A stretch of DNA of 64,000 bases from Christensenellaceae bacterium (GTDB lineage Bacteria; Bacillota; Clostridia; Christensenellales; Borkfalkiaceae), in contig JAZUMP010000056.1 in the NCBI GenBank assembly GCA_045603725.1, forward strand, positions 4,702-68,701. Reading direction: 5' to 3'. A program made the position numbers and the translations under genes. Under the pieces are notes generated by a model. That model made no database searches, was not told the DNA's origin, and saw only the letters and a list, made by a program, of their open reading frames with translations. Below are positions 56,331 through 58,787 of the stretch, in pieces; within the stretch, counting starts at the first letter, position 1; the number at the start of each line of letters is the position of its first letter.

Positions 56331-57115
56331 GATTTATTACCGCCTTTATTCATTTCATATATAAGCCTTAACCCTTCGAGCGTAAGCATTCTATCAATTT
56401 TTGTAATACAAGATACTTCTTTAGCAATGATTTCGCCCATACCACCCGTTGCGATAACGCTAATATCGTCTACGTTAAGTTCTTCTTTAATCTTTTTAAT
56501 AATATTTTCAACGAGCCCTGCAAAGCCGAAAATAACACCTGCTTGCATACAAGAAACGGTATTTTTACCAATAACCGACTTTGGCGCTTCAAGTTCAATC
56601 ATAGGTAGTTGCGCAGTATTAGAAACCAAGCCTTCAAGAGCAGTTTTTATACCCGGAGCAATTACAACGCCAAGTAGTTCGCCGTTTCCTGAAATTATAT
56701 CAAAAGTCGTAGCCGTGCCAAAGTCGATAACAACCATAGGATTACCATCACCGTAACGCTTATACGCGCTTACGCTATTAACGATAATATCTGCGCCTAC
56801 TTCTTTAGGATTATCCGCCTTAATGTTAAGCCCTGTTTTAATACCTGCACCAATCATAAACGGAGAAATGCCAAAGAAATATTCGCACATATGGCTTATA
56901 GTATAGTTAAGCGACGGAATAACCGACGACATAATAATCCCATCTATATCACTTCTACTAATATTAGAACTTGATAGTAAGTTTATAAGCGTTGCACCGT
57001 ACTCGTCGGCAGTACGTGAGTGGCGTGAAGACACCCTATAAGACGCCTTTAACGTTTTACCGTCAAACACTGCATATTTAATATTCGTATTACCTACGTC
57101 GATACATAAAATCAT
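56327..57115 (-). CDS. coaX: Type III pantothenate kinase
   Basis: MILCIDVGNTNIKYAVF, ...VVIDFGTATTFD... and ...IATGG... are present. Confidence 0.9.
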   Translation of the reverse strand: MILCIDVGNTNIKYAVFDGKTLKASYRVSSRHSRTADEYGATLINLLSSSNISRSDIDGIIMSSVIPSLNYTISHMCEYFFGISPFMIGAGIKTGLNIKADNPKEVGADIIVNSVSAYKRYGDGNPMVVIDFGTATTFDIISGNGELLGVVIAPGIKTALEGLVSNTAQLPMIELEAPKSVIGKNTVSCMQAGVIFGFAGLVENIIKKIKEELNVDDISVIATGGMGEIIAKEVSCITKIDRMLTLEGLRLIYEMNKGGNKS

Positions 57116-57657
57116 AAACTTTTATTTACCTTCTTTAAAATTTTTATATAAATAGGAACTAAAATTATCGCCCCTATAAGTTCGCCTACAAAGTTAATCG
57201 ACATAATAGTTGTAAAAACTGCCGCTAACGAACTATAATTAAACACCCAAAGCATAAAAATAGTTAAAACAGTATTAGCAAGTATACCAAATGCCCCACC
57301 AATAGAATAAGCAACCGTCTCTTTCTTAAAAAGTTTATTTGCTAATAAAAAAGCAAAATAAGCAACGACGCCAATAAAAATTCTTGGCAAAATTGAAATT
57401 AGTGGATTAATAAATACAGGATTTGCAATTATCACTGCAAGAAAGAAAGAACAACAACCAAATATTATTCCACCAACAAACATTCCTCTTTTACCTAAAA
57501 AAAGCGATAGCGAAACGGCAAGTGGCAACGTTAATATTGCAGGAGTTAAAGCGCCGAACGCAATCGTTAAAAGATAAGTTTCTATCAGCAAGAACACAAA
57601 CATCATTGCCGACAATACGCCGTAATAAGCGATTTTTTTAGCAGTAAATTTTTCCAT
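57112..57657 (-). CDS. ECF-transporter S component; possibly pantothenate-specific given coupling to coaX. The start is moved to the ATG preceded by GGAGG.
   Basis: About 6 TM helices and about 181 aa. It overlaps the coaX start by 4 nt. The ORF-track start is a TTG lying inside the SD. Confidence 0.65.
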   Translation of the reverse strand: MEKFTAKKIAYYGVLSAMMFVFLLIETYLLTIAFGALTPAILTLPLAVSLSLFLGKRGMFVGGIIFGCCSFFLAVIIANPVFINPLISILPRIFIGVVAYFAFLLANKLFKKETVAYSIGGAFGILANTVLTIFMLWVFNYSSLAAVFTTIMSINFVGELIGAIILVPIYIKILKKVNKSL

Positions 57658-57855
57658 ATTAGCCTCCAATCGAATCCCGTAAAGGGTATCCGTAAGAAAA
57701 AATAAAAAATATATAAGTATCGAACCCTAAAAGGTGTTCGTATAATATATTTTAATATATTTATTTTTAAAAATCAACTACTGATTCACATTTTTTGCTA
57801 ATTTTGAGTATTATATAGTGATAGCAATATCAAAAATTATTTAGGAGAAATTTAT

Positions 57856-58074
57856 ATGATGAACTATTTTGGTTTTAACAATGACAACTGCTGTTTGTAC
57901 ATACTTATCATTTTATTAGTTTTATGCCTTTGTGGTAACGGCTGTTTAAACGGAATAATTGATAAAATTTGTGGCTGTTCGGCTATTCTTCCTATCATAC
58001 TTCTTCTTTTATGTTGTTGTAATAAGGGCGGAAACCAAAAGCCTTTTAGCATAGGCGGTTGCGGTTGCAAGTAA
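57856..58074 (+). CDS. Cys-rich hydrophobic micro-protein (12 Cys in 72 aa)
   Basis: Strong SD aggag sits 7 nt upstream, and a terminator follows directly. Two repeats each consist of a Leu/Ile-rich segment plus a Cys cluster (LCLCGNGC, LCCCNKGG), and the protein ends in GGCGCK. Confidence 0.65.
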   Translation: MMNYFGFNNDNCCLYILIILLVLCLCGNGCLNGIIDKICGCSAILPIILLLLCCCNKGGNQKPFSIGGCGCK

Positions 58075-58082
58075 CAAATGAC

Positions 58083-58114
58083 AAACGGCGCTAACTAGCG
58101 CCGTTTAATTTTTT
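58083..58114. terminator. Bidirectional terminator between the Cys-rich gene and arsR
   Basis: aaacggcgct pairs with agcgccgttt as a hairpin, followed by aatttttt. Confidence 0.75.
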
Positions 58115-58457
58115 AATAACCTAAAAACTCTACGCCTTTTAAAAGCACGTCGTTTATAAGTTCGTTTTTAAGAGAGTAGAAAACTATTTTACCCTGCCTT
58201 TTGTATCTTACTGCTCCTAGGTCTTTTAGGAGCCTTAACTGATGTGATACAGTCGTTTGATTTAAACTAAGCATAACTGATATATCCGTTACGCACATTT
58301 CGGAAATTGCAAGCGCAGATAATATTCTAAGCCTAGTTATATCTGCAAAAATACCGAAAAATCCTACAAGTTCAGATAGTATATCGTCGGACGGAACGTA
58401 ATCACTAATTAGCCCTTGTGTCCTTTTGTCAAGTAGTAAAACGCATTGATTATCCAT
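58113..58457 (-). CDS. ArsR/SmtB-family transcriptional regulator
   Basis: ...FFGIFADITRLRILSALAISEMCVTDISVMLSLNQTTVSHQLRLLKDLGAV... is a canonical ArsR wHTH. Only one Cys occupies the position of the ELCVCDL metal site. Confidence 0.85.
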   Translation of the reverse strand: MDNQCVLLLDKRTQGLISDYVPSDDILSELVGFFGIFADITRLRILSALAISEMCVTDISVMLSLNQTTVSHQLRLLKDLGAVRYKRQGKIVFYSLKNELINDVLLKGVEFLGY

Positions 58458-58602
58458 AAAATCACCGCCTTTTATAACTTTACTATAAGATTTAACCTTA
58501 CACTCATATCATAATAAACAAAGGTAAATATGTCAACTTATTCATTTTTAGAAAAATGTCGCATATTGTAATATAAATAATGATATTGTAAAAAGGAGAA
58601 TT

Positions 58603-58758
58603 ATGAATACTATTAATATTGCTTTAATTGGTTTATTACTACTTTTAAGCGCAAATGGAACTATAACTACTACTCAACTTTTATTACTTCTTGCGCTACT
58701 ATCTACCACTGCGTGCTTATGTGGGAATTCATGCAATAATTCATCTACTACAATTTAA
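58603..58758 (+). CDS. 51-aa hydrophobic peptide with a C-terminal CLCGNSC motif; not in the ORF track
   Basis: My translation is MNTINIALIGLLLLLSANGTITTTQLLLLLALLSTTACLCGNSCNNSSTTI. SD aaaggag sits 7 nt upstream and a terminator follows immediately. It shares the C-L-C-G-N-x-C motif with 57856..58074. Confidence 0.5.
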   Translation: MNTINIALIGLLLLLSANGTITTTQLLLLLALLSTTACLCGNSCNNSSTTI

Positions 58759-58787
58759 AAAATTCGTGCTTTTGCACGAATTTTTTA
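58757..58787. terminator. Bidirectional terminator
   Basis: aattcgtgc-tttt-gcacgaatt is flanked by an A-run and a T-run. Confidence 0.75.

Follow-up and report, generated by a model that had tools for sequence, protein, structure and literature searches.

In the smtB-smtA system of Synechococcus PCC 7942, an ArsR/SmtB-family repressor gene lies divergent from a small Cys-bearing gene, with a control region common to both, and the partner of the repressor is a soluble Cys9 metallothionein. An ArsR-family regulator is paired with a membrane protein in SdpR-SdpI of Bacillus subtilis, in which the autorepressor, not known to sense metal, is sequestered by its partner. Several groups of very small Cys-bearing or hydrophobic proteins have also been described. 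MerF, MerE, and MerT are small membrane proteins that carry Cys pairs at their helix ends and relay Hg(II); the FeoB-associated Cys-rich membrane proteins and the eukaryotic CYSTM module combine a single helix with Cys clusters and are linked to metal or stress handling; and the YjcZ family of sporulation proteins (tiny_TM_bacill, TIGR01732) comprises tiny Firmicutes proteins whose short polar N-terminus leads into a helix rich in Ile, Leu, and Val. Here, we describe a locus with the smtB-smtA layout, in which an ArsR/SmtB regulator gene is divergent from a small Cys-bearing gene, as the earlier note on this DNA had recognized; we find that the pairing is kept across an order.

The locus lies in a 64,000-nucleotide stretch of DNA (the window) from a Christensenellaceae bacterium of the family Borkfalkiaceae, order Christensenellales (contig JAZUMP010000056.1 of assembly GCA_045603725.1). 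Its first gene, cys72 (57856-58074, forward strand), is an open reading frame (ORF) for a 72-aa micro-protein with 12 Cys, the translation of which contains the strings LCLCGNGC and LCCCNKGG and ends in GGCGCK. Convergent with cys72 is arsR (58113-58457, reverse strand), encoding a 114-aa winged-helix repressor that its HTH_5 and NF033788 scores place in the ArsR/SmtB family. Divergent from arsR is orf51 (58603-58758, forward strand), for which translation, conservation, and AlphaFold2 predict a 51-aa uncharged helical-hairpin micro-protein, with ACLCGNSC... as its C-terminal stretch. Both small genes have an AGGAG ribosome-binding site, that of cys72 being 8 nt 5' of the start. Hairpins with T runs mark a bidirectional intrinsic terminator common to the convergent cys72 and arsR (58083-58106, both strands) and an intrinsic terminator of orf51 (58756-58787, forward strand). 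When the sequence was re-read, the three ORFs, the ribosome-binding sites, and the terminators were all found where the earlier note had placed them.

Both small ORFs are conserved and are real genes. A protein database search with cys72 returned 17 protein homologues, in Clostridia metagenome-assembled genomes, and their alignment has 19 invariant columns, several of them Cys; a profile search found the gene, in single copy, in 76 of 101 Borkfalkiaceae genomes (20/23 genera). Some of these homologues carry the NCBI name ‘chorion class high-cysteine HCB protein 13’, which is misleading and uninformative on function. As a single query against the protein database, orf51 gave no match; tblastn and a profile search located it in 62 of the 101 Borkfalkiaceae genomes. 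The gene is usually overlooked by gene callers or labelled hypothetical, and a profile search of the protein database recovered a few gene-called homologues, all of them ‘hypothetical protein’. The relatives of orf51 keep the frame, an ATG or TTG start, and the ribosome-binding site, and the dN/dS of the conserved core is 0.20 in frame versus 0.70 and 3.4 in the two shifted frames, a pattern of substitution by which orf51 is judged to be subject to purifying selection. Because of the homologues and single-copy spread in one case, and the kept frame, start, ribosome-binding site, and dN/dS in the other, both ORFs go beyond what chance would produce. Neither peptide matches any family in Pfam, NCBIfam, or alignment-wide Pfam scans (Pfam E <= 1), and class-level genome searches with both profiles returned essentially nothing outside Borkfalkiaceae. 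No functional study was found in the literature on the NCBI name of the cys72 homologues and on the family.

Conservation extends to the arrangement of arsR and orf51. An ArsR homologue is divergent from orf51, at a spacing of about 120-180 bp, in 30 of the 30 Borkfalkiaceae loci fetched via orf51, 12 of which are nowhere near cys72. Among 80 further Borkfalkiaceae loci, ArsR is accompanied by the peptide gene in about 62, by a P-type ATPase gene directly upstream without the peptide gene in 15, by both (the ATPase gene being convergent with the peptide gene) in 2, and by neither in about 4. The co-occurrence of orf51 with ArsR, on which the earlier proposal depended, thus holds in this family. 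The ArsR orthologue (45-82% identity) is also found in many Christensenellales families and, in the other-family loci inspected, is divergent from an ORF of 45-92 aa with its own ribosome-binding site. These diverged peptides are missed by profile searches and were located solely via the ArsR gene; they have the build of orf51, with a short polar stretch at the N-terminus, two hydrophobic helices joined by a polar loop, and finally a tail that carries Cys. Some are Cys-rich (loci L068, L079, and L086), and that of L086 (...LLIVLCCGCGDNGGFCNNQCLALLLIMLCCGGGC...) is cys72-like. Since one peptide gene is always back-to-back with ArsR across the whole order, we regard the pair as a real regulator-and-target cassette. 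Members of the Christensenellales are widespread in the guts of humans, ruminants, and poultry, and hardly any have been cultured; the cassette is among the most conserved lineage-specific features of the order.

The ATPase that adjoins the cassette in one clade only (Borkfalkia/Gallimonas) is of the copper P1B type (TIGR01511, 562 bits; motifs CPC, YN, and MxxSS) and forms a separate transcription unit. It has metal-binding domains at both its N- and C-termini (L162:143-2647 and 15 other Borkfalkiaceae loci). Co-transcription of arsR with this ATPase gene is ruled out in L162 and L171, in which the peptide gene lies in between, convergent with the ATPase gene. Directly beside the cassette of some relatives is another pair of genes, encoding a protein of ~200 aa whose N-terminus is J-domain-like and whose C-terminus is a Cys-rich hydrophobic tail (e.g. 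...SNCCTTYLCCQALSCFCR), followed by a 169-aa membrane protein (L138:1522-2133, L091, and L092; in the genome studied here, G000, contig C34:6319-6894).

The regulator belongs, by its profile scores, to the winged helix-turn-helix ArsR/SmtB family: it matches Pfam HTH_5 (PF01022) at 52.9 bits (cut-off 22) and NF033788, the ArsR/SmtB metalloregulator subfamily, at 76 bits (cut-off 55). The family assignment made earlier was therefore correct, as was the observation that the ELCVCDL site reads EMCVTDI, with one Cys. Its closest solved relatives are SmtB (1r1t, 64 bits) and CzrA. In the alignment, the alpha-5 ligands of SmtB (D104, H106, H117, and E120) are replaced by N, L, F, and Y, and the C-terminal helix has no conserved His, Cys, or Asp pattern. 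The N-terminal Cys/His arm of an alpha-3N site is likewise absent, Cys5 not being conserved. Helix alpha-3 reads E-M-C-V-x-D, without a second Cys, and in this helix Cys55, Val56, and Asp58 are invariant in 111/111 orthologues and Met54 is kept in 104/111. Cys55 and Asp58 correspond to Cys61 and Asp64 of the alpha-3N site of SmtB. Given this invariant Cys/Asp pair, selection seems to maintain a sensing site at alpha-3, albeit one that matches no known complete site.

Conserved elements are also found between arsR and orf51. The promoter of arsR is near-consensus sigma-A (TTGACA-17-TATGAT; 58508-58536, reverse strand; 11/12 matches) and is conserved in relatives. Overlapping its -35 element is a candidate ArsR operator, O1 (58528-58547), an imperfect inverted repeat of the form ATATGTCAA-N4-TTCAT(AT). 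The arms of O1 vary with genomic G+C while the palindrome stays (G+C-richer relatives have, e.g. GTGCGCA-N2-TGCGCAC), and a palindrome that persists despite sequence change is what is expected of an ArsR operator. A further block, TGTCGCATATTGTAATATAA (58557-58576, forward strand), identified by order-wide conservation and a weight matrix, lies over the -10 region of orf51 and could serve as a second operator, as a CATA-type -10 element, or in both roles. With the weight matrix of this block, the locus reaches 37 bits, whereas no other place in the genome exceeds 14 bits. The second block, as TTTTGTCGCATATTGTA, is kept across families at about 35-45 nt upstream of the peptide start codon, and a shorter TTTTGTC(G) directly precedes the ribosome-binding site of the peptide gene. 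The sequence TTTGTCG[ACG]A occurs in 28 of 111 loci versus about 1.7 in shuffles; a strict reading of it as a Spo0A box was rejected, the sequence being enriched but not universal, and we leave it as a resemblance.

The core of orf51 follows the pattern LLFLL-xxNxTIxxTQ-LLLLALLxTT, after which comes the Cys-bearing tail. In this family, one Cys, located after helix 2, is nearly invariant, and some members have one Cys in total; CLCGNxC, thought earlier to be a motif common to a family comprising both peptides, proved peculiar to the orf51 of this genome. AlphaFold2 models orf51 as a helical hairpin (pLDDT 76.5; helices 3-17 and 23-42), and Foldseek returned no meaningful match to this model. 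In the cys72 peptide, Cys clusters flank two hydrophobic helices and the tail reads GCGCK; the AlphaFold2 model of cys72 is poor (pLDDT 49), with helices at 12-25, 32-39, and 44-53. The peptides are thus hydrophobic and helical, as described before, with the reservation that attaches to the cys72 model. Elsewhere in G000, two small ORFs with one hydrophobic helix and a Lys/Cys-rich tail (contigs C25:11043-11198, reverse strand, and C35:6001-6198, forward strand) resemble, by eye, FeoB-associated Cys-rich membrane proteins as annotated elsewhere.

The place of cys72 in the locus is different from that proposed in the earlier note, which had tied it to ArsR. The gene is syntenic with coaX and a gene for a membrane protein of 170-185 aa, and in many genera it has no ArsR gene as a neighbour. 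It has a sigma-A-like promoter (TTCACA-18-TATTAT; 57785-57814, forward strand; 10/12 matches), within an upstream block that is conserved in 30 loci; in relatives, the -35 element is GTAACA. Aligned upstream regions, read by eye, reveal a stem-loop at the start of the 5' UTR (GTGATA-gcaa-TATCA; 57818-57833, forward strand), the pairing of which is kept in relatives while the stem sequence varies. When the matrix of the ArsR-region block was run over the whole genome, no copy appeared in the cys72 promoter, and because of the steep fall in score away from the cassette, cys72 shows no sign of ArsR-region control. It is a unit separate from arsR-orf51 and would be transcribed alone from its sigma-A-like promoter, with the 5' stem-loop. 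A short TACATA motif recurs near cys72 (57815-57855; L009-L030), in the 5' UTR in some species and between the stop codon and the terminator in others. In the window, the membrane protein encoded upstream of coaX, by a gene that overlaps coaX, is a 185-aa polytopic protein (57112-57669, reverse strand) with no Pfam/NCBIfam match; it may contribute to vitamin uptake together with pantothenate kinase. Similar proteins of 168-172 aa adjoin the ArsR orthologue in other families (L075, L077, L087, L091, and L092).

Whether the two small ORFs are paralogous, as the earlier note held, receives a divided answer. A profile of 75 ArsR-linked peptides aligns collinearly over the full length of cys72-family members (best score 24.4 bits); 7 of 18 real members outscore every one of 1800 shuffled decoys (maximum 9.5 bits), and the maximum for reversed sequences is 1.8 bits. 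However, hhalign of the cys72 family against the orf51 family gives a probability of 0.5%, and in a genome-wide search of small frames, the ArsR-linked profile finds cys72 at E = 0.75 only. Common ancestry is therefore suggested: the sequence comparisons weakly indicate that cys72 is a possible distant relative of the ArsR-linked peptides, with a similar architecture. The genome-wide small-frame search found no further paralogues of the peptides. In other Clostridia families, there are shorter, single-helix look-alikes of cys72 (L062:1316-1632 and L061:1540-1647, e.g. MGCDRGFFGFGNDNSCLWIILIIALFVFCGCGCND), two of which stand in tandem in L062.

We tentatively favour, at a probability of roughly 0.35, the explanation that arsR-orf51 is a cassette for a thiol- or soft-metal-gated membrane micro-protein. 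An SmtB/CzrA-like ArsR repressor, transcribed from a sigma-A promoter, would bind the palindrome over its own -35 element and the second block over the orf51 -10 region, and would thereby repress both itself and the divergent micro-protein of 45-90 aa. The micro-protein, which has no charged residues and a predicted helix-turn-helix hairpin, would sit in the membrane with its Cys tail at the interface. A thiol-reactive agent or soft metal acting at Cys55/Asp58 of alpha-3 would release the repressor, and the micro-protein then made could serve as a membrane-located thiol or metal buffer, amounting to smtB-smtA logic moved into the membrane. Five points speak for this explanation: the family of the regulator and its invariant Cys/Asp pair, the Cys that the peptide conserves, the occurrence of Cys-rich variants in other families, and, in one clade, the adjacent copper ATPase. 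Counted against it are the lack of alpha-5 ligands and of an N-terminal Cys/His arm, the single nearly invariant Cys of the orf51 family, the status of the ATPase gene as a separate unit confined to one clade, and the failure to detect a sigma-A promoter for orf51, the -10 region of which resembles CATA-type sporulation promoters.

The last of these points bears on a rival that we consider possible, if somewhat less so, and that is not mutually exclusive with the thiol- or metal-gated cassette. According to this rival, orf51 would be transcribed from a mother-cell promoter (sigma-E/sigma-K type) and silenced by ArsR during growth, and the hairpin would enter the spore membrane or coat, with its Cys cross-linking. 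No sigma-A promoter was detected upstream of orf51, whereas arsR and cys72 each have one. Instead, the upstream region reads TCAT(A/T)TT-N13-CATATTGTA, which matches a loose sigma-E-like pattern and resembles the promoters of spoIVA (TCATAAT-N14-CATATACAT) and spoIIID (TATAATT-N13-CATAAGTT) of the same genome. However, the -35-like element in this region is also an arm of the candidate operator palindrome; the motif of the promoter region, unlike one recognized by a sigma factor, occurs nowhere else in the genome; and the conserved second block is still found upstream of arsR where a species has lost the peptide gene. The promoter of cys72, being sigma-A-like, also speaks against a sporulation role. 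In a sample of the order, the ArsR orthologue (E <= 1e-28) is present in 41 of the 103 genomes that have SpoIVA and in none of the 18 that lack it, a correlation that is confounded by phylogeny. Spo0A, SpoIVA, SpoIIID, and SpoIIIAA are retained in the family and present in G000 (contigs C5, C54, C60, and C74), but this genome, which is 93% complete, gave no match for alpha/beta-type SASP, SpoIID, DpaA, Coat_F, or YabG, so classical sporulation is doubtful. In one paper, Borkfalkiaceae metagenome-assembled genomes are treated only as ‘potentially sporulating’ (PMC11536998). On balance, we favour the stress-related explanation over the sporulation-related one.

An unlikely alternative is that the membrane micro-protein itself senses a metal or an oxidant through its Cys tail and captures or releases ArsR, following SdpR/SdpI or MgrB logic. 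The strict one-to-one pairing of ArsR and peptide across the order and the lack of a canonical (complete) sensing site in the regulator would suit such a loop, and the second-best NCBIfam match of the regulator is the SdpR autorepressor family (NF033789). This match, however, reaches 47.5 bits against a cut-off of 100, and in about 20 of the 80 further loci, the ArsR gene is kept without the peptide gene, so the regulator works without the peptide; the invariance of Cys55 and Asp58 points, moreover, to a site in the regulator itself. If the alternative were true, ArsR sensing in an order of gut Clostridia would have been handed over to a membrane partner of roughly 50 residues.

It is improbable that orf51 encodes a small membrane toxin held off by its repressor in a toxin-antitoxin-like or addiction module: the peptide is short, hydrophobic, and, on this reading, under tight transcriptional control, but its gene is single-copy, vertically inherited, and syntenic across the order, was not found on mobile DNA, and has no evident antisense RNA or antitoxin partner. 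Largely refuted, and the least probable of all, is the suggestion in the earlier note that the peptides are precursors of Cys-modified RiPPs, possibly matured by the orphan kinase-like/PqqD/peptidase trio at 17.6-19.0 kb, since the conserved N-terminal 37 residues and variable Cys-bearing tail of orf51 do recall a leader-and-core organization but the tails are N/T-rich and of low complexity, which is what sequence free of constraint would look like in an A+T-rich genome, none of the loci examined has a neighbouring gene for a maturase or exporter, and the trio, 40 kb away, occurs in 10 of 23 genera with a distribution unlike that of the peptides (genus g6 has the trio in 6/6 genomes and no peptide; g18, g19, g22, and g23 have peptides and no trio).

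Returning to the thiol- or soft-metal-gated cassette, working it out would provide a function for a new micro-protein family and reveal what an ArsR/SmtB regulator senses with an alpha-3 Cys/Asp pair alone. Compared with known systems, both peptides share with the FeoB-associated proteins and the CYSTM module their very small size, predicted membrane anchoring, and Cys clusters beside a hydrophobic helix; they differ in having no Pfam match at E <= 1, and the known proteins have one helix each and lie in another gene context. The likeness to YjcZ lies in the single-unit look-alikes of cys72 in other Clostridia (L061 and L062), but TIGR01732 is matched neither by cys72, orf51, or these look-alikes nor by anything in the genome, and the proteins of this locus have two helices and Cys clusters. 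SdpR-SdpI is comparable in the pairing of the regulator with a membrane protein, although SdpI is multi-span and the partner here a hairpin of ~50 aa, with no sdpABC and no SdpI-like gene. The Mer proteins resemble cys72 in their two short hydrophobic helices and vicinal Cys clusters (CC, CLC, CGC, and CCC), with an ArsR-type gene nearby; the likeness is architectural only, there being no NCBIfam/Pfam match, no mer genes, and few Cys in orf51. Where smtB-smtA has a metallothionein as partner, Pfam and NCBIfam scans identify none here and both peptides are hydrophobic; since Pfam returned no family for either small ORF at E <= 1, no metallothionein family is represented, and the partner is instead a hydrophobic hairpin in which the number of Cys can be as low as one. 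The regulator lacks the alpha-5 zinc site and N-terminal ligands of SmtB, but SmtB remains its nearest solved relative, with the alpha-3 residues C61 and D64 kept.
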